Virus record (IMG/VR): IMGVR_UViG_3300012147_000007
Coordinates: 1 to 64,000 of that record
DNA: 64,000 nt
Origin: an uncultured virus (IMG/VR IMGVR_UViG_3300012147_000007)
Lineage: Duplodnaviria; Heunggongvirae; Uroviricota; Caudoviricetes
Direction: 5' to 3' (one strand)
The notes below the pieces were generated by a model. It was not told the origin of the DNA. It ran no database searches and was given only the letters and a program-made list of their open reading frames with translations. Below are positions 13,219 to 46,564 of this stretch, in pieces. A program made the translations under genes and the position numbers. Position 1 is the first letter of the stretch, and each line of letters starts with the position of its first letter.

Positions 13219-13605
13219 TTAGACTTTCAAAAAAGGCATAACCCCTTTCAATACATCTAAATGGGTCAAGATGACATTTGCATTAGCATCAGCTTTCAGC
13301 AGAACCTCAAGTGATGGATAATACGTTATATCTCTTTCTTCCATTTCCTCCCACCCATAACATGAACAGTGACCACCTGATACCGCAGCCTATTGCCCTG
13401 AGGCAGTGAACCCGTGTTGAGTAACCCACTCTTCGTAATCATCAAGTTGATAACCATCAGCCATTACAACCCATAGTACATCTCCTAAAGCGAATTGAAT
13501 TCTGTCGATGTTCTCAATACCTGTTTCCAAGTATTTAGGACCACCCCAGTTATTCATTCCTGCTTGAGCCGAAAGTGCTTCTTCAAATGTTTCAAATTTT
13601 TTCAT
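13219..13605 (-). CDS. Hypothetical protein with in-frame TAG (codon 72)
   Basis: Frame continues 56 codons past TAG 13390-13392: GQ*AAVSGGHCSCYGWEE...PFLKV; GHCSCYG is a recurrent phage motif. Confidence 0.7.
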
Positions 13606-13805
13606 GATAATATCTTTTTTAGTTAGTATTAGACTTTTCCTAAAATATTATCGCTTCCTTATTTAAAGTTTGAAGAAATACGCTTCAGCAACAACTTGGT
13701 CTTCTGTTTGAGCGCAACGTTAATTACAAGCAAATCGTAATACACCTTGTTATTGCTGAATATTTTTAATTTTCAATATGTCAATGAACTTTTAGAACCG
13801 TTGTT

Positions 13806-13965
13806 CTAAAAAAACAAAACGCTTTGAAAGATGTAACCTTAGTCCCTTCTGCCCTATTCTGGCGGGAGCCTGAGAATGTGTTCTTATGGTACAGTCCATC
13901 GGCCTTAGTCACTCTATCGTGAGCTTTTCTTAATCTCGTCACCGAGGTATTTCGTTTTGTTTTCT
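13806..13965 (-). ncRNA. Structured RNA resembling a glycine-riboswitch aptamer variant
   Basis: Closing stems AAACAAAACG/CGTTTTGTTT and ACCTCGGT/ACTAAGGT; GCCGATGGA...TTCTCAGGC...AAGGGAC. Confidence 0.4.
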
Positions 13966-14044
13966 GTTTCTTTATACGGGCAAAGATATATAATGTTCTA
14001 CTAATTACCAAAAGAATTTTAATCTTTTTTTAAACCACTATAAA

Positions 14045-14362
14045 TCAACCGTTTGGATACTTACTTTTTAATTCAGCAAGAACCCTTCTTTCTTCAAGTT
14101 CTTTAATATCCTTAGCTTCTTGGGTTGCTGCAGCATCATCTGCTGCAAATAAACCATCAATATCTAATTCGCCCTTATTTTCACTCACTTCATACAAAGT
14201 AGCTCTTTGAATGTTATCTCTTCCGAAATATTCAATTTTTTCTCTCACTTTATTTCCAAGCTCTTCTTCAGAAAATGCTTCAAATTCAACAATAGTTTCT
14301 CCACACGATATAGTGTAGTCACATCCGTTACCTTGATATAGGTGTAATAATAATTTTGCCAT
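14045..14362 (-). CDS. hypothetical protein
   Basis: 105-aa ORF, GCDYTISCG motif. Confidence 0.75.
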   Translation of the reverse strand: MAKLLLHLYQGNGCDYTISCGETIVEFEAFSEEELGNKVREKIEYFGRDNIQRATLYEVSENKGELDIDGLFAADDAAATQEAKDIKELEERRVLAELKSKYPNG

Positions 14363-14363
14363 C

Positions 14364-15104
14364 TTAATCTAATTTTTCTAATTTCTTTAATATCTTAGGA
14401 TTGAACTCATCGACCCTATCATTTCCAAACCTAATTGAAAGTCCGTCCTCTCTTGTGTTCTTAATGACAAAACCTTTTAGTCCTATAAATGCACCATATT
14501 CTACTCGGTCATCTCTATCCATTTTCTTTTCATCAAGCATAACCCAATCATTCCTCTTTACTTCTTCAAGAATATTGTCAGTCTTTACTGTATGCCTGAA
14601 CTTTCCTTTGAAATACTCCAGCATCACATGAATTCTATCACTATGAAGGTATCCAAGTTCTCCAACCTGCTCAGAATCTGGCATCTCACGACCCCATGGT
14701 TCTCCAGTCAACATAACACTCGAACAAACAGAAGTTGTAGGTCTAACGTAATGCCACCCATCTCTATGAGGCATATCATAATACATGCTACCTTGTGATA
14801 TAATCGTAGAGAATACCTCTGGTTCTTCAAGACCTTCTCCGAATCCTACACCCATTTCATATTCTCCTTCAAGCACATGAATAGCGCTTGGCCAAGGGTG
14901 AGGATGAAACAAAGACTCCCCTGCAGCGCAAGGATGAATAAAGTGTAAAAACAATCTATGATTTCCCAGTTGACACCAAAGCCTTTCAACGTGTGGTGGA
15001 TGGTAATTTACATCTACTGATTTCCATATAGAAGCGTCACACAAAAGGTCATACAATTTAACTCTTTCAATCTGTTGTAGTTTTTCTATAAAAGTCCTTT
15101 CCAT
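14364..15104 (-). CDS. Cupin-like protein
   Basis: LFLHFIH..FHPHPWPSA..GEYE..WHYV. Confidence 0.6.
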   Translation of the reverse strand: MERTFIEKLQQIERVKLYDLLCDASIWKSVDVNYHPPHVERLWCQLGNHRLFLHFIHPCAAGESLFHPHPWPSAIHVLEGEYEMGVGFGEGLEEPEVFSTIISQGSMYYDMPHRDGWHYVRPTTSVCSSVMLTGEPWGREMPDSEQVGELGYLHSDRIHVMLEYFKGKFRHTVKTDNILEEVKRNDWVMLDEKKMDRDDRVEYGAFIGLKGFVIKNTREDGLSIRFGNDRVDEFNPKILKKLEKLD

Positions 15105-15178
15105 ATCTAATAGCAAAAGTATGGAATGTTTGAATGAATACCAAAAATATAAACCTATTTATAAGAAACTTTTTTATA

Positions 15179-16690
15179 ATGGACAATATTGAACTTGAAA
15201 ATGAAATAGAACTAAGGATGAATCCTCACGACTTTTCCTTATCTACAGGGGGCTTAATAGATATAATGAATGAATACGATTTATCTGAGCATGATGTAGC
15301 CTTTGTTTATAGTAAAATAGTAGAAAGAAAAAGAGAAGAACTTGTAGATACCTCAAAAGATGTTATCAAATATTTTAGAGATAAAGGAAATCACTACCCT
15401 TCATTTAATGAGTTCAAAACAGTTTTTAAACAATACGGTCCTACTTTTGTAGACGACAAAATTCTAAGAGATATGCACAGGAGAGAAACACGAGATTCAA
15501 ACCAAATTTCAATGTTTGAAATCAGAAAAATGATTAGAGAAGGGCTTGGTTCTATGTGGAGCGAGTTTGACCCAGAAGAATTTGAAGGTGATGCAAAAAA
15601 AGCTGCAATGCAAGACATTGGAGACGAATTTGAAGAGCTTGGCACTACTAAGTACGAAAAAGGTATGGACAAAGATGAGTTCATAGGAAACCTTGACAGA
15701 GTTAAGTTAAATTTACCAAGCGATGAAGAAGAGTTCGAAAGAATCTCCAGCATGATGAAAAAGAAAAAAAGCCATGAGGACCTATTTGGAGCAGGTACAT
15801 TGAATGAGGAAGGGATTGGTCAACAAGGTTTATTTAAACCACAAGACTCTCAAGGAAATGACATAAACCTTAAAGCTCTTGTCACAAACTTGGAAGGGAC
15901 AAAGAAAGGTCGTGTGCTTGGATTTGGAGATGATGGACAAGGAAACCAAACTATAAGAGTAAGCTGGGCATGGCCTATGGATATGAAATTCACAGCACCA
16001 GAAGAAATGGGAGACAAAGTAGAAATGGCAGCCGACCTTATTGTTCAAGGAATGAACGAGAACAATGGAGAAGCTGGAAGAAACAACTTAAGAGCCGTTG
16101 AAGTTACTTATGTTGACGGCACAGTTATACCAACATCAATGGCTGCTCATCTATCAGACGAAGACATTAAAGCCTATTTTGAACCAGGTAAACTATTTAA
16201 CATCGGAAGTGTTGAAGATAATATGCAAGCAGTACAATCAATAAATATAATAAGAGAAGATATGGACAACTTAAATGAAAATGAAGAAGTGGTTATGGCC
16301 ACTGGAATGCTAAACAAAGCGCTTATGGACTTTCACAACGCAGGAGGAAGCAAAGAGTCTGCACAACAACAGCTTGATTCTGTTTTTGTTGGCTCAGACA
16401 GCGAATGGTCTACTCATGTAGATGCTATGAAATCAAAATACCCCGACATGTACCAAGATGGTATTGAGGAAGCGAGAGGTCTTGGTCATGGAGTTAAAAA
16501 TTCAGGAGATAGAAATGTTAAAAGAAGTAATGATAATTCTCACGCTCCAGTAACAACTCTTCCAGAAGGTAGAACTCTTGATTCTAAAATCAAAACTTTA
16601 TCAGAAAGCGCTCCTACAAAGAAGGACCTTTTAAACTTCATTAGCGAACAAGCAACAAAGCTTGCTAAAGATATTAGAGAAGGTAAATAA
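15179..16690 (+). CDS. Acidic probable virion/internal head protein
   Basis: TATTTAT upstream, IRKMIRE motif, repeated L(N/S)E. Confidence 0.7.
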   Translation: MDNIELENEIELRMNPHDFSLSTGGLIDIMNEYDLSEHDVAFVYSKIVERKREELVDTSKDVIKYFRDKGNHYPSFNEFKTVFKQYGPTFVDDKILRDMHRRETRDSNQISMFEIRKMIREGLGSMWSEFDPEEFEGDAKKAAMQDIGDEFEELGTTKYEKGMDKDEFIGNLDRVKLNLPSDEEEFERISSMMKKKKSHEDLFGAGTLNEEGIGQQGLFKPQDSQGNDINLKALVTNLEGTKKGRVLGFGDDGQGNQTIRVSWAWPMDMKFTAPEEMGDKVEMAADLIVQGMNENNGEAGRNNLRAVEVTYVDGTVIPTSMAAHLSDEDIKAYFEPGKLFNIGSVEDNMQAVQSINIIREDMDNLNENEEVVMATGMLNKALMDFHNAGGSKESAQQQLDSVFVGSDSEWSTHVDAMKSKYPDMYQDGIEEARGLGHGVKNSGDRNVKRSNDNSHAPVTTLPEGRTLDSKIKTLSESAPTKKDLLNFISEQATKLAKDIREGK

Positions 16691-16697
16691 ATTAAAT

Positions 16698-17405
16698 ATG
16701 AATTTAGTAGAACAGCTGGCTAAAATATTAAAACCAATACTATCTGAAGAATTGGAACCAGAGGGCGCTTCATACAAATCTACTCTTAATAGAATATCTG
16801 AATTGTCAGATGAGATTAATGATTTGATTGACGAATCGGATGACCTACCTTCTTGGATTCAAGATAAGATTACAATAGCAAATCACAATATGGATGCTAT
16901 TCTTGGTTATTTTAAATCTCAAGAACTTGACGAAGAGTCAAAAGGTCTTTGGGCAAATATTCACGCCAAGAGAAAAAGAGGAGAATCTCCTGCTAAAAAA
17001 GGAGAAAAAGATTATCCAGATAAAAAATCATGGGACAAAGCTTCTAAGTCAGAATCTCTTTCAGAAGAAGAATATAATGAAGCATGTTCAATAATGGAAA
17101 GAGTATCTTTCATGTCTGAAGGAGATAAGTTCGGCTTTAAAGAGATTGATGCTCCAGAATTAAATGAAGCTGAATACCAAGGTAGAAAAGTTGAGCTGGG
17201 AAAACCTACAGCAGGTGATGTCAAAAAATTTAAAGTATACGTTAAGAATGATAAAGGAAACGTAGTTAAAGTAAACTTTGGACAAAAGGGTGTTAGAATT
17301 AAAAAAAATAACCCAGAAAGAAGAAAGTCATTTAGAGCAAGACACAACTGTGAAAACCCAGGACCAAGATGGAAGCCGAGATATTGGTCTTGTAAAAAAT
17401 GGTAA
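16698..17405 (+). CDS. Modular probable virion protein
   Basis: GLWANIHAKRKRGE module and EAEYQGRKV...RRKSFRARHNC...YWSCKKW module. Confidence 0.75.
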   Translation: MNLVEQLAKILKPILSEELEPEGASYKSTLNRISELSDEINDLIDESDDLPSWIQDKITIANHNMDAILGYFKSQELDEESKGLWANIHAKRKRGESPAKKGEKDYPDKKSWDKASKSESLSEEEYNEACSIMERVSFMSEGDKFGFKEIDAPELNEAEYQGRKVELGKPTAGDVKKFKVYVKNDKGNVVKVNFGQKGVRIKKNNPERRKSFRARHNCENPGPRWKPRYWSCKKW

Positions 17406-17406
17406 A

Positions 17407-18106
17407 ATGAAAAAAGTAATCTGCAAAAATTGTGATTGGAAATGGGATATAGAAAAGGATGACAAAAACCCTTACTTATGTCACAAATGTGGGTACGATA
17501 ATAAGAAAGATAAATTTGACTACAAAGCTCTTAATAAATGGAAGAGTGATAATGGAATCAAAGAATATATAATAGACATCAGAAAAATAATACAGGAAGA
17601 ATTTGAAAAAATTTTTAAAATTGATTATCCATACCATAAAATCGAAAAGCTAGTAGATTATTATAAGGAAGAGTTTGATGATTATATGGATAAACAAGGG
17701 TGGAATATATTTCAATCCGATTCACCTTCGCTTTTATGATAAATATAATACTGATGGTGATTATTTTTGGCAAATTCAAGTTGTAGATGAGCCATATGGA
17801 GAAGCTGGATTCTATGACCAAGATAAAAATGCTGTTATTGGAATTTCTACAGACCAAGAAGCTATAGGGCTTGCTAGAAAAACAGGCCTCATGGTTGATG
17901 ATGATGGAGTTGTGTTTGGATTTCAAGGACATTCACTTTTATCTGAAGAAATTAACTTGCCGATAGAAATTGGTGATGAAATTTTAACTGGACGATTCAA
18001 AAACAAGAAGACTAAAATTAAATCTATTGATAAAAACGATAAGGGCGACTTAACAATTAATGATAAGCCTGCTCTTAAGTTTAGAATACCTAAAAATACA
18101 AAATAG
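17407..18106 (+). CDS. Probable virion protein, frameshift near 17700
   Basis: CxxC..CxxC, DIRKIIQEEF; continues in the 17675-18106 frame. Confidence 0.6.
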
Positions 18107-18163
18107 AATTAAACAATCCTACCAAAATCTCTTTTACCAACTTTCATTATTTGACTCCGCATG

Positions 18164-18237
18164 TACCGATGAAGGGTTTCGAACCCTAAGCCTTATCCTT
18201 ATGAGGGATACGTACTAACCTATTATACGACATCGGC
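18164..18237 (-). tRNA. tRNA-Met (CAT)
   Basis: TATCC-CTCATAA-GGATA. Confidence 0.85.
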
Positions 18238-18272
18238 ATGTGATGGATTGATAGCTCCATCGGGCATTTTCC

Positions 18273-19360: not shown

Positions 19361-19406
19361 GACTTTTGTTTTTAAAATTATATTTTATTTCATTATCGAA
19401 CAAATG

Positions 19407-19480
19407 AGCAGGTAGACGGGATTGAACCGTCTCTATTCCAGATTGGAAATCTGGCGCACCACCATTTATGCGTTACCTGC
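19407..19480 (-). tRNA. tRNA-Gly (TCC)
   Basis: CCAGA-TTTCCAA-TCTGG, U73. Confidence 0.9.
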
Positions 19481-19485
19481 GTTTG

Positions 19486-19640
19486 TGGACATGGGAGGAA
19501 TTAAACCCAAGACGTAAATCTCGCTTACTTTGCTCCTGAAATGACTAATGCGCACTTATCAATTCACTCACGTTTCAACCCTTAGCTTTCTTAGCACCAA
19601 CACCAAAGTTGGGACGGTTCATCTCACCGCAAGCATATCC
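19486..19640 (-). ncRNA. 155-nt RNA with tRNA-like ends
   Basis: GGATATG/CATGTCC-A, degenerate T arm, GCTTGC/GTAAGC stem enclosing several hairpins. Confidence 0.55.
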
Positions 19641-19675
19641 ATATTTGCCTATTTATAGTCGTAGCAAGGACTTTG

Positions 19676-19748
19676 AGCGAAATGTGGGAATCGAACCCCG
19701 TCTTCTCCTTGGAAGGGAGACGCTTTCAGCCATTAAGCTACATCTCGC
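19676..19748 (-). tRNA. tRNA-Gly (TCC), possible 8/4 fold
   Basis: GCGAGATG/CATTTCGC, TCTCC-CTTCCAA-GGAGA, short T stem. Confidence 0.8.
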
Positions 19749-19953: not shown

Positions 19954-20037
19954 TGGGGGTGGTTGGATTCGAACCAACTCAGACCTATGCCAATGGTGTT
20001 ACAGACCATCCCAACTCTCCAACTTTGGCGCACCCCC
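19954..20037 (-). tRNA. tRNA-Tyr (GTA)
   Basis: ATGGT-CTGTAAC-ACCAT, long variable arm. Confidence 0.88.
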
Positions 20038-27742: not shown

Positions 27743-28546
27743 CTATTTTCTGTTCATAAATTCATATCCATACCACTTATACTTGCTGTAATCAACAAGT
27801 TCTGCAGGCTTCCAGGTTTTTGTCCAGTGCTCATCAGTTTTAACGTGACCCTGGCGAACCAGTTTGAACAAATTGTTGAATTCGTTATGATGCACGTCAA
27901 GAACTCCAGCGTTTCTACTATCGTATCCTTCAATGTTTCTAATCACAAATCCTTCAGATGAGTCAGCTCCAGTATCAAGGTCGTATCCACCAAGCAACCC
28001 TGGAGTATCAACACTTTCAACCCAAGTCATTCCCAGATTCTCTTTTAACCAATTGTCAAGCAAAACATCTTCATCAACATCATCACGATAAAAATCTTTC
28101 AATGTTGTTTTAATAGGAATCACTGGAACCGTTGGAAAATCAAACATGGCAGCGTAGAACTGGACTTCCTCCCAAGATAACCACTTGCCATTTTCTCTGG
28201 CAGCGAATACATAATAATAAGATTCAAGATTCTTGTAAGCAACAGAGTGAATTCCATACATGTTCTCGCCAAACAATTCAAGCTTACCAAGGTCATTTTT
28301 AATCAACTCCCAGCGTTCACGCATTGGCTTATCCCAAGGATGTGCTGTTGGAGTAACATGACTTCTGGCAAATACTCCTTCTTTTTTGAAGTGGTTATTT
28401 TGTCCATCAAGCTTTTCTGTCATTACAAGCTCTGGCATTTCAGCAAAAGCCTTGACGTAACCCTTAGGCATGAAGCGGTCATCAGATGTCGTTCCGAGCG
28501 AAATCTTTGCATGAAGGCATCTTCCATATTTATCCTAGCTACTCAT
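27743..28546 (-). CDS. RNA ligase (Rnl2-like) with in-frame TAG at codon 4
   Basis: TEKLDG, FGE, EGFV; ATG 28546 coupled to upstream stop (TAATG); MSS*DKYGRCLH..GTTSDD. Confidence 0.85.
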
Positions 28547-28734
28547 TATTTTAACTTTTTCTTAATCCTACAAAGTTCGAGATATACCTCTTCAACCTCT
28601 TCTATAAATTCATCACTATAATCTCCGCTTCCCCATGTTTCTGGGTCCAGAAATTCTCTTAAATCCTTAACAGCATCACGAACATTAGCTCTGACACTTT
28701 CTATTTTCTCATCTGCTGTTGTAGTTGCACTCAT
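28546..28734 (-). CDS. hypothetical protein
   Basis: 62 aa, translationally coupled on both sides. Confidence 0.7.
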   Translation of the reverse strand: MSATTTADEKIESVRANVRDAVKDLREFLDPETWGSGDYSDEFIEEVEEVYLELCRIKKKLK

Positions 28735-29201
28735 CTTCTTATTCCTTTTTTGTATAATTTATAACTATTCTCTACATATAGATAATCGTAGTTGTCAAGG
28801 CACCTATAAAGATTCGTTCTCAGAATATTTATATCATACTTGAAGTGTTCTTCGATTCCTCTGGTTATGTCATCAATTATAACAAAATAATCAACATCAT
28901 TATCGTCAATCCAGTGCTGAATTTCATCAGCTCTTCCATTGTCAAGTTCTGGTGTTAACCCGATTACTTCAGCTTCAATTCCTCTTTTTTTGAATAGGTC
29001 TTGAAATACTTCTAAGCTTCTCGTTTTTCTCCAGGTTGATGAAACTACAATCTTACCATCAATGTGATTGGTTATTTTATTTAATGCATCAATTGCTGCA
29101 GGTTCAAAAAGGTGACCATCAACATCTCTATTTTCTGTTGAGTTTCCCATCTTTAACCAAGAAGCCAACACTCCGTCTATATCTAAAAATACTATATTCA
29201 T
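28731..29201 (-). CDS. HAD phosphatase (Swiss-Army-knife RNA repair-like)
   Basis: FLDIDGVL, IVVSSTWR, R.DEI..W, FVIIDD. Confidence 0.85.
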   Translation of the reverse strand: MNIVFLDIDGVLASWLKMGNSTENRDVDGHLFEPAAIDALNKITNHIDGKIVVSSTWRKTRSLEVFQDLFKKRGIEAEVIGLTPELDNGRADEIQHWIDDNDVDYFVIIDDITRGIEEHFKYDINILRTNLYRCLDNYDYLYVENSYKLYKKGIRR

Positions 29202-29242
29202 TATACGCAAATATAATTAAAATGTTCTTTTCGTGAAAGGGT

Positions 29243-37258: not shown

Positions 37259-37528
37259 TTATTTTTTTTCAATCGACCTCATAGTTCCAAACCACTCAGC
37301 CCTTGATACTACTATAAAAAACGTAGGATTGTCATCATAAAACTTTTTTATAATTTGACAAATTTCAAACTCTTCTTTATCTTGAAAATAGGAAATAGCC
37401 TCATCAACAATAAAAGTTGGAGTTAATTCATTCGCAATTCTTTTACTAATGTCTTTTGCAACACTTGCAACACAATTGTAGAATAATATATCTTCCTTTT
37501 TAATATTTGATTTGCCCCTGATTCTCAT
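37259..37528 (-). CDS. hypothetical protein
   Basis: 89-aa ORF. Confidence 0.7.
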   Translation of the reverse strand: MRIRGKSNIKKEDILFYNCVASVAKDISKRIANELTPTFIVDEAISYFQDKEEFEICQIIKKFYDDNPTFFIVVSRAEWFGTMRSIEKK

Positions 37529-37531
37529 GAG

Positions 37532-37882
37532 TTAATATTTAACACCAGAATTTCTTCTTGGCTTCGAAGTTCTTTTTAATTTTTTAACTTTAGTATCTTG
37601 ATTTAATGTGGCACAAAATAAAGAAGTTGAACCTGGTTGCTGAAGCGGTATTGTTCCACTGTCTTCACAAAGAGGAACGTTCCATGGAACTGTTTTTGTA
37701 TTATCATAAATAAAAGGCTTAGCATCATCTTGGCTAAACCTGTCTGGAGTCACTTTGTCAAACACTAAGTCAAGATGGTCTTGAATAGTTTTAACCTGCT
37801 CAGGAGTCATTCCTTTCTCAAGCATATCTGGATTCATCTCAAGTGCTCCTTGTAGCCAATATGCAAACTCATTACTTCCCAT
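37532..37882 (-). CDS. hypothetical protein
   Basis: FAYWLQG..E..QVKTIQDHLDLVF. Confidence 0.7.
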   Translation of the reverse strand: MGSNEFAYWLQGALEMNPDMLEKGMTPEQVKTIQDHLDLVFDKVTPDRFSQDDAKPFIYDNTKTVPWNVPLCEDSGTIPLQQPGSTSLFCATLNQDTKVKKLKRTSKPRRNSGVKY

Positions 37883-37886
37883 TCTT

Positions 37887-38699
37887 TTAATTTTTATATT
37901 TCCAAATAAATCCACCAGAAGTTTTACTTCTTCCTTTTAAACAATTTACAATACTTGTTTTTTTAATTCCAGTTGAATTAGATGCATCACTAATGCTTTT
38001 GAAATCATTAATAAATTCACTGCTATTATCAAACTGAATTACTTCTAAAATATTATGTTTAGGAGGCTCAATATATTTATCAATTTTTATTTTAACTTTT
38101 CCATCTTTATATATCCACATAAACTCACTACATCTATAACCATTTCCTTTACAAACTTGAGTTATATTAGAATGACTTAAGTTTAATTTTTCTCCAGCAT
38201 CAACAGCAGATTCCCATTCTTTAATAAAGTTTCCCTCCAAATTATATTGCAAAATTGGTTTTTTAATAGAATCAAAATGTTTTCTAATAGCCTTTTTCCT
38301 ATTTCCATTTTTATCGTTTTGATTTATTTTTAAACCAAATCTTGCTTTTTTATTGTTAATATACTGCTGTTTGCTCCATGGTATTCCAATTCTTCCATAG
38401 GTTGCACCACCTTCTCCACCTTCTAAATGATTAGTTAAATCAAACAAACCACTATAATATTTAATCCAATATCTTTCTCGCTCCTGCCAATTATTTTTGC
38501 CACATTCTTCAATTAACTCTATTTTTGGAACTAATCCTTTTTTTATAACTGAATTAATCCATATAGCTGAATGATACTTGTTATACTTACTCCTATTAAT
38601 ATGAGACCTTAGTCTTTTTTTCATATTAGTAGTTTTTCCAATATATCTAATATCATTAATAATTGGGTCTTTTAAACAATATATAAAAATCTTTCTCAT
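37887..38699 (-). CDS. GIY-YIG endonuclease with NUMOD1 repeats
   Basis: FIYCLKDP..RYIGKT; IKEWESA; SGGFIWKY. Confidence 0.9.
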   Translation of the reverse strand: MRKIFIYCLKDPIINDIRYIGKTTNMKKRLRSHINRSKYNKYHSAIWINSVIKKGLVPKIELIEECGKNNWQERERYWIKYYSGLFDLTNHLEGGEGGATYGRIGIPWSKQQYINNKKARFGLKINQNDKNGNRKKAIRKHFDSIKKPILQYNLEGNFIKEWESAVDAGEKLNLSHSNITQVCKGNGYRCSEFMWIYKDGKVKIKIDKYIEPPKHNILEVIQFDNSSEFINDFKSISDASNSTGIKKTSIVNCLKGRSKTSGGFIWKYKN

Positions 38700-39062: not shown

Positions 39063-41174
39063 TTATTCACTATCTTTCTTTTTTGATTCAAGCATAACTA
39101 TGTTCCCTTGCTTATCTCCATACCTTTGTGTTAGAGTTTTTCTTGGACCTCCATTAGCATCTTCTTCTGAAAGAGCATCTGCAATCCTTTGCTTAAATGT
39201 GTGATAAGTGTCTTTATCTCTAAGAGCTATTGGTTTACCATATTCATCAATGAATTTTTTAACCTTCTTAGCATCCATTCTTGAGTGGGTTGACAAATAT
39301 TCACCAATCTTTAATAGAAGATATTTATTATCACTAAGTATTTTCGTACACTCCTCTTCGCACTCTCTGATAAGTTTTCTTGCCGCTTGCTCGGTAGCTT
39401 TTACGTTTTCTGTATTGAACATTGTGTTAGTGCTTGAACTCTTGTGTCCGTAAAACATTGGAACCTCGTCAAGCATACCAAAAATCTTAGCCATATTTAA
39501 AGCAACTGAAGTTGCACTTTCAAAATCTCCTCCAGTACCAACTCCAAGATTTTCTTCTCCAAAAATCATTTTCTCAGCAACAAACCCGCCAAGAGCTATG
39601 ATTATATACTTTCTTAAAGTATCTCTCGTGTCAATAGCTGGAAGCTCTGCTGCACAGTACCCTTCAGACATATTAGCTGTTCTACTAAGTATTTCTGTAG
39701 GAAGAATTTGAGCTCCATATATTGCTGCAACAGCATGTCCAGCTTCGTGTATTGCTACGTGAGCTTGCATTTCGTCTCCAGTAGATTTTCTTAGACTTTC
39801 AATTTTTAATTTAACTGGGAATTGTGATGTAGACAAAATCTCTCTACTACTATTTAGCATCTCTATTTTATGTTTTCCTCTGGTAAATTTCCACGAAACT
39901 ATTTTGACCGAACCTTTTGTTTCAATTATTTGCTCAATTACTTTTCCAACATGACTTTCTACAAGAGAATTTATAGTTGTAAAAACTGGCCTTGCTCCTT
40001 GCGTTGGCAAAACACCTTCTTTGTAAACAATTGTGTTTACTGATTCGTGAAATTCAATATCAATATCATATTCACTACTTATTTTTTCAACAAGCTTTTC
40101 TAACTCAAGAGATATAAGTTGCCTATAAACCTTAGAACTGAAGGCAGGATATATTATTTGACTATTTCCAAGCCTGGCAATTTGTTCTGCTCTAAACCTC
40201 TTTTGTAAGGCAGCTTTTATTTTTGGCATCGTAATCTTTAGAGAATGCTTATAAAACCTATCAGCATCACTATCTGGGTCAAAGTTGTTTGACATTTGAT
40301 ATGCTTCATCAACATTTCCAATAACAAAAATACAAGACTTAGAATAATCGAACTCCATTGGCTTAAACGCTCTATGCATTGTTTCATCAAGAAAAGTAAG
40401 AGACTCATTGTGGTCCATCGTCTTAAGGAACTCCTTCAACTCTCTCTCTGATAAAAATCTCGTTTCCCAAATTGACTGTATGTACCAATAGAAAACTGAA
40501 GGAACAAATAGGTCTTCCTTTTTTTCTTCTTCTTTTTCTTTCTTGTTTTTTGAATCCGTGCCATCTTCTTTGAAGTACTTTTCGTGATAACTCTTGTTTG
40601 ATGATATAATTCCCATCTTAGACTCAACTTTTCCGCTGTCTACACAGTCTTTTAACTTCAAGTAAAGATGATACACTCTACTTCCATAATAAGAACTCTG
40701 AAGGATTGAAATCTTTCCAGAATCTAATAAATCCCACATAGCTCTAAGTCCTGATTTATCAAGTTCTTCACCATTTTCGTTTATAGTTCTTCCAAGTTGG
40801 AATTCGTCAAACACAATTCCTATCTGGTGGCCTTCTCTGTTTTTTAACTCTTCTGAAAATGAATGAGCTAATTTTGTGTTATCTTGTGAAGCATAATCTC
40901 CAACATCAAACTTATAAAGACTGTCTTCCAAGCCAATGTGAAAGAAAAGTCTTTTTACCAACCTTGTCTTTCCTACTCCAGTCATTCCCCAGAGATTAAT
41001 AATTGTTGGTCTAATCTGCCCATTAGGAAAAAGATACCAAGGCCTCATTAAATCGACCACCTCATCAATGATGTCATCAAGCCCAACGAACTCCTTTTTC
41101 AATTCCACTTTGGCACTTTCTAATACCTCTTTTCTTCTAAGAAACCCCTTTTTATCTTCAGCTGAAATTTTCAT
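39063..41174 (-). CDS. AAA+ ATPase fused to peptidase M41 (FtsH-like, no TM segments)
   Basis: GMTGVGKT, VFDEFQ, HEAGH, LGGFVAE, GDFESAT. Confidence 0.85.
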   Translation of the reverse strand: MKISAEDKKGFLRRKEVLESAKVELKKEFVGLDDIIDEVVDLMRPWYLFPNGQIRPTIINLWGMTGVGKTRLVKRLFFHIGLEDSLYKFDVGDYASQDNTKLAHSFSEELKNREGHQIGIVFDEFQLGRTINENGEELDKSGLRAMWDLLDSGKISILQSSYYGSRVYHLYLKLKDCVDSGKVESKMGIISSNKSYHEKYFKEDGTDSKNKKEKEEEKKEDLFVPSVFYWYIQSIWETRFLSERELKEFLKTMDHNESLTFLDETMHRAFKPMEFDYSKSCIFVIGNVDEAYQMSNNFDPDSDADRFYKHSLKITMPKIKAALQKRFRAEQIARLGNSQIIYPAFSSKVYRQLISLELEKLVEKISSEYDIDIEFHESVNTIVYKEGVLPTQGARPVFTTINSLVESHVGKVIEQIIETKGSVKIVSWKFTRGKHKIEMLNSSREILSTSQFPVKLKIESLRKSTGDEMQAHVAIHEAGHAVAAIYGAQILPTEILSRTANMSEGYCAAELPAIDTRDTLRKYIIIALGGFVAEKMIFGEENLGVGTGGDFESATSVALNMAKIFGMLDEVPMFYGHKSSSTNTMFNTENVKATEQAARKLIRECEEECTKILSDNKYLLLKIGEYLSTHSRMDAKKVKKFIDEYGKPIALRDKDTYHTFKQRIADALSEEDANGGPRKTLTQRYGDKQGNIVMLESKKKDSE

Positions 41175-41253
41175 TGTCTTTTTTTTATGTAAAGATAGTC
41201 AATTCAATTCTATAAACAAAAAGAATCCTGAACAATTTGCTCAGGACTCTTTT

Positions 41254-41883
41254 TTACTTTAAAACCCACTGATAGTATCCAGGTTTTTTGTTGTTATCCA
41301 ATCTTTCAAATAAACCAGACTTATAAACACCATGTGTGTTATGCAGATTTGAGCCTTGCTCTTTTTCGTCTTTATCATACACCTTCCATGTATAATAATG
41401 ATGCATATTTGGTTTTAACTCTTTGTTGTCAACCTCTTTGTTTTGAAACCAGGTCCAACCATCTTTTGCATTGTCTGAATTTCTTTTTATGTTTTCATCA
41501 AAAAATCTCTTTTCCATTTCATACTCTTCATCCCAAGCTTCTTTTGCAATCTTCAAGATTCTATCCTCTCTTTCTTTTCTTTGCTCTGGGAATGAATATG
41601 TAAGTTCAAACTTAAACATCTTCTTAATGTTATCCCAATTATCTGGGTCATGTAAATCAAAGTGATGTTCAACAAAGCCATCAATATCTCTGCAATGCAA
41701 ATCTATCTTAGAACCTTTTGTTGAATATACGTAGTTTCCATCTTCATCAATGTATGAGTATGGGCCATCCCAGTATCCAGCTTTGTGTTCTGCGAAAACT
41801 GGGATTCCACCCTCCATTCTTATATGAGCATTACCTTCTGGGTCTGCCTCTTGAAGCATTTTTATAAATTCTGATGTTGTCAT
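41254..41883 (-). CDS. hypothetical protein
   Basis: 209-aa ORF. Confidence 0.75.
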   Translation of the reverse strand: MTTSEFIKMLQEADPEGNAHIRMEGGIPVFAEHKAGYWDGPYSYIDEDGNYVYSTKGSKIDLHCRDIDGFVEHHFDLHDPDNWDNIKKMFKFELTYSFPEQRKEREDRILKIAKEAWDEEYEMEKRFFDENIKRNSDNAKDGWTWFQNKEVDNKELKPNMHHYYTWKVYDKDEKEQGSNLHNTHGVYKSGLFERLDNNKKPGYYQWVLK

Positions 41884-42365
41884 TACTGTAAGATTTTTTT
41901 GATTTCTAACTTCAATGTTTCCGAATCAGAACTTGCGTCAATAAACCTTTTGACAATATCCCACTTAACTTTCATCTCTGCAGATGGTTTAACTGACTTA
42001 TGCTTCATCTCCTGACGGAACACATTGTTCTTAAGCATTCCAAGATGATTCTTTGTTGTAACCCAACTTGTGTCAGCCACCTTGACATTAACCTTTCCAC
42101 CTTCAATCGTAACCGCTACATAGTGTAGTTTACCATCAAATGTTGTTGAGAATACTTTGCAGTAATCTTCTTTAAAATCCTTGTCCCACACGTATTTCGT
42201 TTGGAAATAATGCTTCTCTGAAGCTTTTAGGTAATCCGATACCATCTTGTCTAATTGTTCTTGCGTAGGTATTACCTTCACTGATTTTTCTTTTTTCATA
42301 ACTTTTGTTTTTACTGTTTCTAACGTTTTCATAATTTTTGTTTTTAAATTTTTAATTGATTTCAT
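41883..42365 (-). CDS. hypothetical protein
   Basis: ORF coupled to next gene. Confidence 0.7.
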   Translation of the reverse strand: MKSIKNLKTKIMKTLETVKTKVMKKEKSVKVIPTQEQLDKMVSDYLKASEKHYFQTKYVWDKDFKEDYCKVFSTTFDGKLHYVAVTIEGGKVNVKVADTSWVTTKNHLGMLKNNVFRQEMKHKSVKPSAEMKVKWDIVKRFIDASSDSETLKLEIKKILQ

Positions 42366-42378
42366 TGTTTTTGATTTT

Positions 42379-42804
42379 TTATTGTTCACTGCATGGTGGG
42401 TGACCAAACTTGTGAAAGTACTTCAAGGGTCTTTTAAATTTACCATCAACCCAGAATCCCCACTTCCTTTTACTTCTTCCAGAGAATACGAGTGTCCAAC
42501 ACCCTCCTTCTGGTACATCCACATAATGAGCATGAGTTGCTTTTCTGTATCTGATAGAACCTGCTTTCATCAAGTCTCTTCCATCATTTGATACATCTGT
42601 ATAACTCCCTTTCAATACACATGTTAGGAATGACCATCCGTGGTCGTGCATGTACCTCTTGTCATCGCTTCTAATGAAATGATGAATTCTGATGGCGAAG
42701 AAGTGAAAATTAAATATCCATCTATACGCATAAGGGCACTCTTTTTCTCCAAGAGCCTCATTCCACCTTACTTGAATTGGTCTGTATTTCTTAAACTTTT
42801 TCAT
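42379..42804 (-). CDS. Cupin-like protein
   Basis: IHHFIRSDD..HDHGWSF..GSY..H. Confidence 0.7.
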   Translation of the reverse strand: MKKFKKYRPIQVRWNEALGEKECPYAYRWIFNFHFFAIRIHHFIRSDDKRYMHDHGWSFLTCVLKGSYTDVSNDGRDLMKAGSIRYRKATHAHYVDVPEGGCWTLVFSGRSKRKWGFWVDGKFKRPLKYFHKFGHPPCSEQ

Positions 42805-43310
42805 TTTTCTAAATTTATAAGAATTGTGGGTACAGTTTTTCCATCCTCCATATAAGAATTATCTGGGAGGACTGTGATTGTGTAACTCTTATCTTCGAGC
42901 CACTTACGAAATTTAATTTGAAGTTCCGAATTTCCAGTCATCCAATAAGGAGACATGATAGAAATGATTTTTCCACCCTCTTTAACGCAATCATACATCT
43001 TCATGACATGTTCGCAGTCGATGTTGTCTTTGAAGTTTGGTGCGCCAATTACTCGGTCATATAAATACTTTGGTTTGAAGTCAAGAAAATTGCTCCAAAT
43101 AACATTGAACCCCTTATCTCTCAATACCTCTTTGCATTGCGAGTTAAGTTCAATACAATCCAAATCAATGTTTGGATTATGTTTAAGAATGCCTTCGGCT
43201 AATAAGCCAACTCCTGCAGATGGTTCAAGGACTTTGTGCCCATCTTGTATATCAGCCACCTACATGAAGTGGTCAATAACTGACTGTGTTGTTTCTCTTT
43301 TTGTTTTCAT
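42801..43310 (-). CDS. SAM-dependent methyltransferase-like protein with in-frame TAG at codon 17
   Basis: MKTKRETTQSVIDHFM*VADIQDGHKVLEPSAGVG; NPPF position reads APNF. Confidence 0.75.
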
Positions 43311-43326
43311 TTTTACTTATATTTAG

Positions 43327-43474
43327 TGGCACAGGGTGGGCTCGAACCAACGACCTCTGGGTTACGGTGAGTGAATCTTTTTCACTTTACACATACTACT
43401 CGCCTTATTACGTAATTCACGCTTTTGCTCGGTAACCTTATCTCCAGCGCTCTAACCAACTGAGCTACTACGCC
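43327..43474 (-). ncRNA. Met-like tRNA body with ~75-nt insert in anticodon loop
   Basis: GGCGTAG/CTGTGCC-A, canonical D and T arms, insert closed by GGTTAC/GTAACC. Confidence 0.75.
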
Positions 43475-43525
43475 TGGTGCCGCAGGGAGGAATGACCCTC
43501 CACTTTATAGCCTGATGGCTGCAGC
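43475..43525 (-). ncRNA. ~50-nt mini-tRNA with encoded ACCA
   Basis: GCTGCAG...TATAAAG-T-GGAGG-GTCATT-CCTCC-CTGCGGC-ACCA. Confidence 0.65.
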
Positions 43526-43531
43526 GTGTTG

Positions 43532-43583
43532 TGGGAGAACCAGGATTCGAACCTGAGATTGATACCTTACATATCTTTCTCCC
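43532..43583 (-). ncRNA. 52-nt tRNA-like RNA lacking one arm
   Basis: GGGAGAA/TTCTCCC-A, GATAT..GTATC hairpin, CAGG-TTCGAAT-CCTG. Confidence 0.65.
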
Positions 43584-43588
43584 ATTTG

Positions 43589-43726
43589 TGCCCGTGAGTG
43601 GATTCGAACCAAAGAACTCTTTTCCCACTTTGTTGCAACGTTTCGGAATCGAGTGCAAGAATATACCAACTGTTACTCCTCACAATTAAACGTTATCATT
43701 GCGTCTTGTAATCTTGCATCACGGGC
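43589..43726 (-). ncRNA. 138-nt RNA with tRNA acceptor stem and T loop
   Basis: GCCCGTG/CACGGGC-A, GGTTCGAATCC, TGCAAGA/TCTTGCA stem. Confidence 0.6.
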
Positions 43727-43731
43727 GTTTG

Positions 43732-43807
43732 TGGCGAATGAAGGGTTCGAACCTCCGACCTCTGCCATCCGAAGATGATAGCGCTCTACCAACTGAGCTA
43801 ATTCGCC
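43732..43807 (-). ncRNA. Met-like tRNA body with cUUCGg-capped anticodon arm
   Basis: CTATCATC-TTCG-GATGGCAG. Confidence 0.75.
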
Positions 43808-43856
43808 TGGTGCAGTGGGGAAGTTTGACCTCCCGCTTTATAACCGAGTCACTGCG
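43808..43856 (-). ncRNA. ~50-nt mini-tRNA with encoded ACCA
   Basis: GCAGTG...TATAAAG-C-GGGAG-GTCAAA-CTTCC-CCACTGC-ACCA. Confidence 0.65.
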
Positions 43857-43865
43857 TATGTTTTG

Positions 43866-43937
43866 TGGTCCATATCGGGCTCGAACCGACAACCTGCGGG
43901 GTTAGAATCCGCTGCTCTACCATTGAGCTAATAGACC
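43866..43937 (-). tRNA. Amber suppressor tRNA (CTA)
   Basis: Canonical cloverleaf; GCGGA-TT-CTA-AC-CCCGC. Confidence 0.85.
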
Positions 43938-43993
43938 TTGTTGTCCTTGGGGCTGGGATTTGAAAATTGTTTCTATTTATATAAAAACAAAAT

Positions 43994-44695
43994 ATGAAAC
44001 CACTATTCACCGACAAGGAATATAATTCTGCTAAATCAATGGACAAATTATCATGCGAGTGTTATTATTGCGAAGAAGCTTTTTATGAAATCAAGAAAAG
44101 AATCACAGAATTCAAAAAAGGAAACTCTACCAGAACATTGAAGTCTTGTTCTAAAAAAGAATGCAAAGCTAAGCAGCAATCAAAAACACACAATAAACAA
44201 AAGTTAGTAACATGTGAAAACTGCGATAAAGAGTTCTCCAAAACAAGAAGTCAAATTAAAAAATCTAATAATAACTTCTGCTCTCGCTCCTGCAGCGCAA
44301 CCCACAACAATAAAAACAAGACTCATGGTACTCGTAGGTCAAAACTTGAAGTATGGCTGGAGGAGCAACTTGCCTATCTGTATCCAGAGCTTAAAATTCA
44401 TTATAATCAAAAAGATGCAATAAATTCAGAGTTAGATATATACATACCAAGTTTTAACCTTGCAATTGAAATAAATGGTATTTTTCACTACAAACCTATA
44501 TTCGGAGAAGATAAGTTTAATAATATTATAAAAAATGACCAAAATAAATTACAAGCATGTATTGATGAAGGTATCGAAATAATATCAATTGATGTTTCTC
44601 AAATGAATTATTTCAAGCCAAAAAAGGCTCAAAAATACCTTGACATCATTTGTCAATTAATTAGCAATAAGTCAAAGAACATGTTAAAATCTTAG
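43994..44695 (+). CDS. Zn-finger + PD-(D/E)XK-like homing endonuclease
   Basis: FCSRSC, RSKLE, ELDIYIP..IEINGIFHY. Confidence 0.85.
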   Translation: MKPLFTDKEYNSAKSMDKLSCECYYCEEAFYEIKKRITEFKKGNSTRTLKSCSKKECKAKQQSKTHNKQKLVTCENCDKEFSKTRSQIKKSNNNFCSRSCSATHNNKNKTHGTRRSKLEVWLEEQLAYLYPELKIHYNQKDAINSELDIYIPSFNLAIEINGIFHYKPIFGEDKFNNIIKNDQNKLQACIDEGIEIISIDVSQMNYFKPKKAQKYLDIICQLISNKSKNMLKS

Positions 44696-44751
44696 TCACT
44701 CCATTGAGTGTGCAGCAACCACTACGTGCAAGTGTTTTAACTTTGGTTACC

Positions 44752-44828
44752 TCCTGGCGGCTGAGATTCGAACTCACGACCTCTATCAAATATCAGGATA
44801 GCGCTCTAACCAACTGAGCTACGCCAGG
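44752..44828 (-). ncRNA. Ile-like tRNA with 9-nt anticodon loop
   Basis: CTATC-CTGATATTT-GATAG. Confidence 0.65.
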
Positions 44829-44852
44829 TTGTTTTTATATTTCATCACATCA

Positions 44853-45281
44853 TTATGATGCTGTTTTTTTAATGTTATTAATATGAAAATTACTAACAGG
44901 GTCTTCTTTTATTCCTTGAGAATCAACCCACTGTTCGTAGTATTCTTTTTGAGCAAGACGTAAGCTACCTGTTAACCTACGAGCTTGGTCGCATGCTTCA
45001 ATAGCCATAGATGTTGCTTTATGATTTAAGTCTGGTTCACGAAATACAGAAACACACACTCCTCTTTGTCGAAGTTTTTCAACAAGAGACAATAAAGACT
45101 CTTCGTCTTCAATTGATAAACATGCTACGTATTGTGAATTTTCGTACCATTCCTTAAATTGGTCTGGATACTCGACTGCAAATTGAGACATTGCATGAGC
45201 CGATTGCGCAATTTGAGCTCCAGGATGCAAATCTCTTGTAACAACTATTCTAAGTTTTTCATTATTTTTTACCTATTTCAT
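44853..45281 (-). CDS. Peptidyl-tRNA hydrolase, Pth2-like, in-frame TAG at codon 3
   Basis: MK*VKNNEKLRIVVTRDLHPGAQIAQSAHA...FREPDL..T. Confidence 0.8.
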
Positions 45282-45349
45282 ATCTAAGTTATTTTTAATT
45301 ATTTTGGTGTTTATTTTTATACGTAAAAATTTATAAAATGTTTCTATAA

Positions 45350-46462
45350 TTATAAACTTTCTATTAATTGACTCATTTTCTTTAACAAATCTTCATTATA
45401 TGCAATTCTTAATAATTTAATTTCACTTTTACTACAGTAATCAGTTTTAATGCTATCGTTTATTTGCGTTAATTCCAATGCTTTTTCTCCCCCAAAATAA
45501 TCAATAGACTTAAAATGTTGCCTACCATCAAATTCAATACAAATATTGTAATCAGGCAAGTAAAAATCAAATGGTAACTCCATTATATTCCTACATTCTT
45601 TAAATTTCTTCTGCCTTTCAAATTTTATTAAATTTTCTTTTAATAATTTTGAAATCCTTTTTTCTCCCTTTGACTCATTGCAATGTGGACAACCAATACC
45701 TCTAATGTGATGTGTTGGCACCTGCTCAAATTCATCGTGAACTGGGCAAATTATTTTTATTTTTGTTTTAGAGTTAATATATTTAACAAAAGAATAATCA
45801 TATTTATTCTCATGAATCAAATGTGACTCCATTATAAAATATTCTTGTGATTTTTTAAGCTTATCAGCACGCTCTATTATAGCGCATTTATTACAACCAC
45901 GCCCAGATAAATGGTCATGAGGAGTTTGTTGAAATTGTCCATGATTTGGACAAATTATTACAATTGGTTTTTTTGAATTGTTATATTCCGTAAAAGAGTA
46001 ATCATATTTATTTGAATGGACACTTTGAGCTCTTACTTTGAAATCTTCGAGAGTTAACTTCATTCTATCATTCCCACACGATGGACAACCCCTATTAGAT
46101 AGGTGATTCAAAGGCATTTGATTAAATTCTCCATGATTTTGACAAATTATTGTAACTGGAGTTTTATAATTCTTATAATTTACTTTGCTATAATTGTAGC
46201 AATCACCATGAATTGATATTGCTTTTTTTACAAATTCTTCTTTTGATAAGGATTGTTTGTATGATTTTTTTAAGTTTCCACAACCTGGACAACCAACCCC
46301 ATTAGCGTGATGAAAAGGCAATTGATTAAACACTCCATGAACTGGACATTTTATATCTATTTTAGTTCTTGCATTTTTATATTCTACAAGACTATAATCG
46401 TAAAAATTATTATGAATTTTTTGCGCCTTTTTAATGAAGATGTTTTTGTTTTTTTCTTTCAT
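45350..46462 (-). CDS. Homing endonuclease with DUF723-like repeats and PD-(D/E)XK-like domain
   Basis: 4x YDYS..Y....IICP.HG.F.Q; SKGE, LPFDFY, IEFDGRQH. Confidence 0.88.
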   Translation of the reverse strand: MKEKNKNIFIKKAQKIHNNFYDYSLVEYKNARTKIDIKCPVHGVFNQLPFHHANGVGCPGCGNLKKSYKQSLSKEEFVKKAISIHGDCYNYSKVNYKNYKTPVTIICQNHGEFNQMPLNHLSNRGCPSCGNDRMKLTLEDFKVRAQSVHSNKYDYSFTEYNNSKKPIVIICPNHGQFQQTPHDHLSGRGCNKCAIIERADKLKKSQEYFIMESHLIHENKYDYSFVKYINSKTKIKIICPVHDEFEQVPTHHIRGIGCPHCNESKGEKRISKLLKENLIKFERQKKFKECRNIMELPFDFYLPDYNICIEFDGRQHFKSIDYFGGEKALELTQINDSIKTDYCSKSEIKLLRIAYNEDLLKKMSQLIESL

Positions 46463-46489
46463 ACTAATAAGTAGTAAAAAATTTTCAAC

Positions 46490-46564
46490 AAGTTGTGCGC
46501 CAGGATGAATATCACGTATTGTGACTATTCTTAATTTTGAATTATTAATCTATAAGTTTTTCAT
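46490..46564 (-). pseudogene. Displaced 5' remnant of Pth2-like gene (also with early TAG)
   Basis: MKNL*INNSKLRIVTIRDIHPGAQL. Confidence 0.8.

Follow-up and report, generated by a model that had tools for sequence, protein, structure and literature searches.

The window, the DNA considered here, covers positions 1 to 64,000 of the IMG/VR virus record IMGVR_UViG_3300012147_000007 (G000; 117,229 bp, linear, CheckV 53%), and contains four otherwise intact genes that are each interrupted by an in-frame TAG codon, together with a gene for a tRNA with the anticodon CUA, an amber suppressor. The four genes are all on the minus strand, and code for a Pth2-like protein (44853..45281), an RNA ligase (27743..28546), a small N6-adenine-methyltransferase-like protein (42801..43310), and a protein with a GGHCSCYG motif (13219..13605; the GHCSCYG gene). 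The Pth2-like gene starts with ATG at 45281 and has TAG as codon 3 (45273-45275; MK*VKNNEKLRIVV), and the TAG is codon 4 of the RNA ligase (28535-28537; MSS*DKYGRCLHA), codon 17 of the methyltransferase (43260-43262; MKTKRETTQSVIDHFM*VADIQ), and codon 72 of the GHCSCYG gene (13390-13392; ...GFTASGQ*AAVSGGHCSCYG). A fifth in-frame TAG (46550-46552, minus strand; MKNL*INNSKLRIV) is located in the 5' remnant of a second Pth2-like allele. All five had been proposed in an earlier reading of the sequence alone, and translation confirms each of them. That sequence-only reading also placed two of the genes to either side of the suppressor tRNA cluster, and the tRNA(CUA) gene (43865..43937, minus strand) indeed lies between the methyltransferase and Pth2-like genes.

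The parent record sits wholly within a longer IMG/VR record of 195,333 bp (G001; CheckV completeness 78%), with 0 mismatches over 117,220 bp, and a metagenome contig of 364 kb (L105) agrees with the window at 99% over its Pth2-like locus, the TAG apart. The window has a GC content of about 34%, its minus strand carries most of the genes, and the sequencing runs containing this DNA are lake-water metagenomes. The TAG regions are identical in three IMG/VR records (G001, G004 and G005; 6426/6426 and 6507/6507 bases). Contigs of three further lake-water runs, possibly stemming from one sampling campaign, show 0 differences where they cover the methyltransferase TAG (X3 record 9, X4 record 17) or the Pth2-like TAG (X3 record 16); in this comparison low-side joints (side 21, likeness 80) were set aside as probable cross-matches between tRNA genes.

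None of the four intact genes has a second lesion, and each frame is open to normal length. All four internal stops are TAG, where the expected TAG share of single-base nonsense changes is 0.28 (0.277^4 = 0.006). The base following the internal TAG is G in all four (GTA in the Pth2-like gene, GAT in the RNA ligase, GTG in the methyltransferase, and GCT in the GHCSCYG gene), whereas among 13 terminal TAGs the next base is A in 7, T in 4, G in 1 and C in 1 (Fisher p = 0.002 for G); the TAG in the remnant is followed by A (ATT). Because all four are TAG and all four precede G, the set of internal TAGs exceeds chance. In E. coli, amber suppression increases when UAG is followed by a purine at the +4 position (PMC6266110).

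The read-through product of the Pth2-like gene matches PF01981 (PTH2) with 39.9 bits against a cut-off of 23, with residues 9-109 aligned to profile positions 2-114 of 115. The next canonical start after the TAG is a TTG at 45230, and from there the match spans profile positions 13-114 only. In the AF2 model of the read-through product (mean pLDDT 72.5) the first beta-strand corresponds to residues 10-15, so that a start at the TTG would drop this strand as well as PF01981 positions 2-12. Among the Foldseek matches listed, the top 11 consist of Pth2/Bit1 proteins from archaea or human and of proteins annotated as conserved (E 7e-8 to 6e-6; TM on target 0.65-0.70). By profile and predicted fold the gene thus appears to be a PTH2-family member and a predicted peptidyl-tRNA hydrolase, and judged from the model its fold needs the N-terminal strand lying 5' of the TTG. 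The proposal that family-typical N-terminal sequence is located upstream of the next usable start is borne out by profiles, homologues and models for the Pth2-like gene, the RNA ligase and the methyltransferase.

The tRNA(CUA) gene is 73 nt long by ARAGORN, scores 63.2 bits against Rfam RF00005, folds into a canonical cloverleaf, and is present as an identical copy in G001. According to ARAGORN, which may miss unusual tRNAs, the window has 29 tRNA genes, each on the minus strand, and G001 has 40; one has the CUA anticodon. Directly 3' of the Pth2-like gene is a tRNA-Ile(GAU)-like gene (44752..44828, minus strand; ARAGORN with introns allowed, Rfam 43 bits) with a 2-nt insertion, and a tRNA-Lys(CUU) gene (43731..43807, minus strand; ARAGORN and Rfam) adjoins the suppressor. 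A 233-residue open reading frame (ORF) on the opposite strand (43994-44695, plus strand), matching no family, is positioned between the tRNA-Ile-like and tRNA(CUA) genes, and because it intervenes, tRNA(CUA) is 916 bases from the Pth2-like gene in the window. The spacing between tRNA-Ile and tRNA(CUA) is only about 80 bases in close relatives, and from this arrangement the ORF is probably an insertion.

Pth2-like loci were gathered from other phages by a profile scan (21 from viral contigs and 42 from metagenome contigs). We excluded L034 and L035, which are identical to L036, L130, whose N-terminus runs off the contig, and L146, a weak partial match, and analysed 61 loci, corresponding to 38 clusters at 90% identity. 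An in-frame stop is present just before beta-strand 1 in 28 of the 38 clusters, and is TAG in 26, TAA in two and TGA in none. By comparison, TAG accounts for 27 of 233 terminators of ORFs of at least 100 codons in the same loci (binomial 1e-22, uncorrected for shared ancestry). A start codon is located 1-5 codons 5' of the early stop in 26 of these 28 clusters, the other two (L096 and L125) having none within 8 codons. The resulting mini-frames are MK*, MKK*, MKNL*, MKDT*, MT*, MS*, MI*, MNT*, MKR*, MN*, MLCI*, M*, V* and MKLNH*. From the stop to the anchor there is no ATG, GTG or TTG in 22 of the 28 (the exceptions being L103, L104, L115, L119, L120 and L096). The codon past the early stop is ATT (15 clusters), GTA (3), GTT, GTG, AAT or AGT (2 each), or ATA or GGA (1 each), so that the +4 base is a purine in 28/28, against a baseline of 0.68 (P = 2e-5). 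The 10 clusters without an early stop belong mostly to a gut-phage subfamily (RLYVL...VQGGHA). The window's remnant allele resembles the MKNL* alleles of two of the gathered loci (L107 and L114), and a related phage (G003) has a 43% identical Pth2-like copy reading MKDT*IKNDSKLRV that is flanked by two tRNA(CUA) genes.

The TAG of the Pth2-like gene co-occurs with tRNA(CUA) across very distant phages, as the sequence-only reading would predict. A tRNA(CUA) gene is present in the retrieved flank of 29 of the 38 clusters (21/28 with an early stop and 8/10 without). Of the 31 clusters having any tRNA downstream, 20 have tRNA(CUA) as the nearest one. Seven more clusters have the order Pth2-like gene, tRNA-Ile, tRNA(CUA), with tRNA(CUA) about 100 bases away. 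Overall, CUA accounts for 31 of 113 tRNAs in these loci, compared with 1 of 40 genome-wide in G001. The order with tRNA-Ile is seen in L106, L109, L112, L113, L115, L118 and L119 (anticodon GAU, or UAU in L115); in L106, L109, L118 and L119 the GAU form accompanies a gene reading TAG ATT, a codon pair that the two tRNAs together would decode, which may be coincidence. Among the gut-phage relatives, L097, L138 and L139 have no early stop, and have instead an internal stop at a Trp/Lys site (LEHKD*NNEY) with a tRNA(UCA) nearby in addition to tRNA(CUA), and these may represent TGA recoding.

One complete genome shows a different pairing. In the 353 kb genome G006 (locus L086) the Pth2-like gene carries a TAG, and the genome has a tRNA(UUA) gene and no tRNA(CUA). 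Ochre suppressors read UAG too. A transfer-messenger RNA (tmRNA) gene (142604-142968) and an RF-1-domain ORF, possibly ArfB-like (147282-147590), are near the Pth2-like gene, the tRNA(UUA) is at 188241-188313, and 60 other tRNAs are present. Three huge-phage records also have the early TAG: LR756500 reads MK*I, LR756501 reads MS*I and has another TAG-ATT deeper in the gene, and LR756504 reads MT*I.

The family is also found in cultured phages. A tblastn search of cultured phages returned 212 records, 206 of which are Mycobacterium phages, and the records of Bxz1 (NC_004687.1 gp154) and Myrna (NC_011273.1 gp84) annotate the product as 'peptidyl tRNA hydrolase'. As in the window, the Pth2-like homologue (34-37% identity) is within a tRNA cluster and a start codon and TAG precede the annotated GTG. 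Bxz1 reads GAAGGC ATG TAG GTG, with a tRNA(CUA) gene, listed in the record as 'tRNA-OTHER', 306 bases downstream, and Myrna reads GGAGGC GTG TAG GTG with tRNA(CUA) 130 bases downstream. No description of a link between the Pth2-like TAG and tRNA(CUA) was found in full-text literature, including literature specific to mycobacteriophages, a search that left subscription journals mostly uncovered, so that the link may be in print.

The methyltransferase TAG is also conserved, being at codon 17 in all 12 of 12 relatives (78-99% identity), whereas the codon following it varies (GTG, GTT, ATT or ATG). The 15 codons 5' of the TAG evolve as coding sequence: variable sites number 4/2/8 by codon position, mostly third, and over all pairs there are 191 synonymous and 115 non-synonymous codon differences. 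Profile matches to PDB entries (Erm/KsgA/TaqI) begin at residues 6-9, with residues 6-27 aligned to the N-terminal helix region of these proteins, and in the AF2 model (pLDDT 89.8) a helix at residues 9-19 spans codon 17. Foldseek ranks CamA and the M.TaqI catalytic domain highest, the latter with E 1e-11 and a TM on query of 0.76-0.79. The S-adenosylmethionine (SAM) motif LEPSAG.G is invariant in 26 sequences. The canonical catalytic motif of N6-adenine methyltransferases is (D/N/S)PP(Y/F/W); here the site is GAPNF, in which P91 is invariant and F93 almost so, and is not the canonical tetrad. The best Pfam match, PF05175 (MTS), scores 20.1 bits and is below the cut-off of 23. From motifs and model together, the product appears to be N6-adenine-methyltransferase-like and to have no recognition domain.

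The RNA ligase scores 82.2 bits against PF09414 (cut-off 27), and its translation contains EKLDGQN; the nucleotidyl-transferase lysine motif is KxDG. The family sequence KY.R..H...SLGTTSDDRF is found near the N-terminus in 115 of the 120 matches listed, and in about 108 of these exactly five residues are ahead of it, which is also true of the window. Met22 is the next start and there is no start codon between the TAG and KY.R..H, and the family-typical N-terminus therefore needs the ATG 5' of the TAG. A homologue in a related phage (G002; 65% identity) has the same ATG and has Ser at the TAG site, and the 21 codons from the TAG to the next ATG are conserved relative to G002, with changes mainly at third positions. 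The TAG site is variable and polar across the family, mostly Ser, and is 'Q' (TAG or CAG) in the five closest database proteins among the matches listed. The ligase is about 70% identical to Bacteroidota proteins, suggesting either acquisition from that phylum or a host within it. No Shine-Dalgarno sequence precedes the window genes read (Pth2-like, RNA ligase and methyltransferase) and, because of this and the ligase identity, a Bacteroidota host is hinted at. Directly upstream of the ligase is a gene for an HAD domain of 'Swiss Army Knife' RNA-repair proteins (28731..29210, minus strand; PF18143, E = 9.7e-27).

At the TAG site of the GHCSCYG gene a homologue in G003 (64% identity) has Trp, and more distant members have L, F, Y or I. 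Conservation of the TAG in relatives therefore differs among the four genes: it stands for the Pth2-like gene and the methyltransferase, for which sense codons are absent in the contigs and homologues, and it fails for the RNA ligase (Ser in G002) and the GHCSCYG gene (Trp in G003). The latter two TAGs appear to be younger and lineage-specific, and look like TAGs accumulating once a suppressor is present, an idea already put forward in a preprint (10.1101/2021.08.26.457843). The residues aligned to the TAGs disagree, being Ser in the RNA ligase, Trp or another hydrophobic residue in the GHCSCYG protein, and K, N, E or Q in distant methyltransferases. We considered whether 'Q' at the TAG in database homologues (MKQISNN..., MSSQDKY... 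and ...FMQVAD) proves a CAG codon, and rejected this; the Q is a gene-caller translation, because the DNA of the contig coding for one such protein (P0001, locus L111) reads TAG.

We consider it fairly probable that the conserved UAG, its linkage to tRNA(CUA), the coding-type evolution 5' of it and the +4 purine reflect context-dependent amber suppression by the phage tRNA(CUA), which would gate these genes. In this mechanism all four intact genes would need tRNA(CUA), or equivalent UAG read-through, for full-length protein, with the phage tRNA decoding the internal UAGs in competition with RF1 such that the output of the Pth2-like enzyme and the methyltransferase would be proportional to suppressor activity. 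Suppression would be partial and context-dependent, with an internal TAG followed by a purine (G here) being read and a terminal TAG followed by A or T mostly stopping. The set of genes may have two layers. The first would be an old module, a Pth2-like gene with TAG at codon 2-6 and a tRNA(CUA) tens to hundreds of bases further on, to which this clade adds the small methyltransferase with its TAG at codon 17; the second would consist of the recent, lineage-specific TAGs of the RNA ligase and GHCSCYG genes, tolerated thanks to the suppressor. The dependence on suppressor tRNA proposed in the sequence-only reading is thus well founded for the Pth2-like gene, by its TAG and tRNA linkage across distant phages, and for the methyltransferase (12/12), but the set is not uniform. 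That reading further saw in the gating a timing or stress switch set by suppressor build-up or by loss of RF1, which would be one possible purpose.

We also propose, more tentatively and partly by analogy, that the early UAG of the Pth2-like gene and the adjacent tRNA(CUA) form a self-contained module for translational control in large phages rich in tRNAs, among them jumbo phages of lakes, soil and the sea as well as mycobacteriophage Bxz1, in which hydrolase synthesis would report the balance of suppression and RF1 and the enzyme would clear, or limit, the peptidyl-tRNA arising from suppression. The hydrolase might recycle peptidyl-tRNA from drop-off at weak stops or during read-through, or might feed back on suppression. 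A role in translation rescue fits because a tmRNA and an RF-1-domain ORF are near the gene in G006, and tRNA clusters elsewhere. The analogy is with prfB (release factor 2), which is autoregulated through an early in-frame UGA with a +1 frameshift: both genes have a conserved early in-frame stop, both products act on peptidyl-tRNA or termination, and in both translation would sense the state of termination. The Pth2-like gene differs in having UAG, no frameshift and a dedicated tRNA alongside, and its feedback is hypothetical. The mini-frames are also similar to the lambda bar minigenes, free-standing ORFs of 2-5 codons that yield peptidyl-tRNA needing Pth recycling and are toxic in pth mutants, but here the short stop-ended frame adjoins the reading frame of the hydrolase itself and is in phase with it.

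Several observations weigh against gating by suppression. Among the 142 crude genes (the longest ORFs with a codon-usage score and no dedicated gene caller; about 248 in G001), 14 end in TAG, with 115 ending in TAA and 13 in TGA. One of the 14 is the RNA ligase itself (27743-27745, followed by T), read-through of which would add 68 codons, and an efficient suppressor would be costly because such terminal TAGs would be read through. In the window's tRNA(CUA) the anticodon stem has an A-C mismatch at its base, and pairwise comparison with the phages' own tRNAs, and of 34 suppressor tRNAs with 82 reference phage tRNAs, gave no consistent isotype (Arg 8, Met 6, Phe 6, and others). Nine of the 38 clusters have no tRNA(CUA) in the flank, three of them with less than 250 bases of downstream flank, and the clusters share ancestry, so that the binomial and purine P values overstate independence and are upper bounds on significance. 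The locus-bearing runs listed are lake-water metagenomes, with no RNA run among them. To these are added the TAA stops and the possible starts past the stop, which bear most directly on the main rival.

This main rival is a leader mini-ORF of 1-5 codons that ends in TAG, with re-initiation right past the stop, no read-through, and tRNA(CUA) merely a member of the tRNA cluster. The codon past the early stop is a potential start in 18 of 28 clusters (ATT 15, GTG 2 and ATA 1), TAA replaces TAG in two clusters, and the methyltransferase TAG is followed by GTG in the window, from which a shorter product is possible, and by GTG, GTT, ATT or ATG in its relatives. Bxz1 and Myrna, unlike the window, have a Shine-Dalgarno-like sequence and a GTG past the TAG, so that read-through is not required; the purine stretch GAAGG or GGAGG is 7 bases ahead of this GTG, a spacing that fits it, and the record starts gp154 there. 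Initiation past the stop is therefore possible in Bxz1 and Myrna and at the methyltransferase. Both phages also have a promoter-like TTGACA...TAC(T/A)GT motif, with which translation could begin without a leader at the codon ahead of the TAG (ATG or GTG), and these sequences are compatible with either start. Any stop would serve a leader ORF, however, and TAA dominates in AT-rich phages, yet TAG is used in 26 of 28 clusters. The codon past the stop is not a start in the window (GTA) or in several other clusters (GGA, AAT or AGT), and the methyltransferase is conserved at the protein level over the 16 codons 5' of its TAG, which align to the N-terminal helix in known methyltransferase structures. 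Neither the codon-72 TAG of the GHCSCYG gene nor the RNA ligase, with no start before KY.R..H, is accounted for, and the linkage of tRNA(CUA) extends to the subfamily without an early stop (8/10). We regard initiation past a leader ORF as unlikely.

Somewhat less likely still, in our view, is that the TAGs are inactivating or nearly neutral nonsense mutations, devoid of regulatory meaning, that are tolerated in decaying or dispensable accessory genes. The relatives compared as DNA lack the TAGs of the RNA ligase and the GHCSCYG gene, TGG to TAG is a single transition at a GHCSCYG site that is hydrophobic across the family, and the genome contains a true Pth2-like remnant and many homing endonucleases. 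Decay is countered by the normal-length frames with no second lesion in any gene, by the retention of the Pth2-like and methyltransferase TAGs over deep divergence, and by the restriction of internal stops to TAG followed by G, identical in several assemblies.

Full reassignment of TAG throughout the phage (genetic code 15), as in Lak and crAss-like phages, would explain the presence of tRNA(CUA), the low GC and the preference for TAA, as well as the ORFs that lengthen when TAG is read as sense and the Q given at TAG by some database gene callers. We consider it very improbable, because TAG still terminates genes, no less often than TGA, and only about 4 of 248 crude genes hold an internal TAG. 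A scan of all of G001, a record 78% complete, and comparison with G002 and G003 gave no further convincing internal TAG, and none of those found is in a structural gene. A release-factor gene (PF00472) was found in none of G001, G002 and G003, with one RF-1-domain ORF in G006. We take this to be a phage with the standard code and a suppressor. Lastly, sequencing or assembly error, which might be entertained for a metagenome assembly compared on contigs and not raw reads, has next to no probability, as the TAGs are the same in three IMG/VR records and the contigs of three other runs, and dozens of unrelated assemblies, as well as cultured phages, have the same codon in the same position.

The sequence-only reading had in addition mentioned an in-frame TAA, and here we found no convincing case within the window. 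One candidate (46940-48040, minus strand) was rejected, as it consists of two tandem NT5C-like 5'-nucleotidase genes, paralogues in the same frame with a single TAA between them, and the other (37259-37915) matched no Pfam family. Internal-stop candidates from a coding-potential scan at 39098, 50081, 25196 and 58300 were not convincing, and a TAG at G000:116070 parts two same-frame genes, with a patatin domain beginning past the TAG. Outside the window, a possible in-frame TAA is present in a Clp-type ATPase gene of G001 (191228-191230; DIIIY*LDLGAVMAG compared with KRIFSLDLASIVAG), as seen through alignment to G003 only. A run of overlapping plus-strand ORFs (15134-18106; 518, 247, 153 and 143 residues) is located among minus-strand genes and may be the frameshifted gene to which that reading referred; these ORFs match no Pfam family above the cut-off, the sole match being of the 247-residue ORF to DUF5754, below it.

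More broadly, Pfam matches in the window indicate an accessory region of large-phage type, with AAA+/FtsH-like and ClpB-like proteins, a UvrD helicase, a single-stranded DNA-binding protein (SSB), ATP-grasp proteins, several GIY-YIG/HNH endonucleases, and the RNA-repair pair of HAD_SAK_2 and RNA ligase. A megablast search of cultured phages with 8 kb gave 0 matches. Between the intact Pth2-like gene and the remnant allele (46463..46564, minus strand) is a homing-endonuclease-like ORF with DUF723, treble-clef finger and CapR matches in Pfam (45350..46462, minus strand), with which the remnant is in frame; together (45350-46564) they look like a homing-endonuclease insertion that carried along donor flank. 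Some of the tRNA genes are unusual. A tRNA-like gene at 43326-43474 has a 65-nt insertion past the anticodon (Rfam 41.5 bits), a tRNA gene adjoining the GHCSCYG gene (13076-13176) has a 25-nt insertion, and a 73-nt tRNA at 12920-12992 has a six-base anticodon loop and for that reason is unnamed by ARAGORN; all three are on the minus strand.

Phages that carry suppressor tRNAs and read TAG as Gln under code 15, Lak, crAss-like and Agate phages among them, are described in two reports (10.1101/2021.08.26.457843; PMC9523058), and they share with the window phage a phage-encoded tRNA(CUA), low GC, a preference for TAA, internal TAGs, and the ideas of suppressor-gated expression and TAG accumulation. 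The window phage differs in that TAG is still a common terminator, only about four genes are affected, these are accessory translation and RNA-repair genes and not structural or lysis genes, and the conserved client is one gene beside the tRNA; the term 'peptidyl-tRNA hydrolase' has 0 occurrences in the preprint (10.1101/2021.08.26.457843). A closer parallel is Xanthomonas phage XacN1 (PMC5852040), a tRNA-rich jumbo phage with the standard code, an orphan amber suppressor tRNA(CUA) and a peptidyl-tRNA hydrolase gene, whose authors extended translation through 18 terminal TAGs and reported no target genes. The targets in the window are internal TAGs near the 5' ends of genes, which a test of that kind, directed at terminal read-through, would miss.

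Many large phages with the standard code carry amber-suppressor tRNAs without a known target, and the Pth2-like gene is a specific and conserved candidate for one. Such targets are readily overlooked, with gene callers either shortening these genes or silently rendering the TAG as Q. Bxz1 or Myrna on M. smegmatis offers a tractable system for the target question. If suppression does gate the Pth2-like gene, this would be the first conserved client of orphan amber suppressors in standard-code phages, and would likely represent a first step toward full TAG recoding, with the window and its relatives as a concrete example of a stage between phages that use the standard code and those with TAG recoded.

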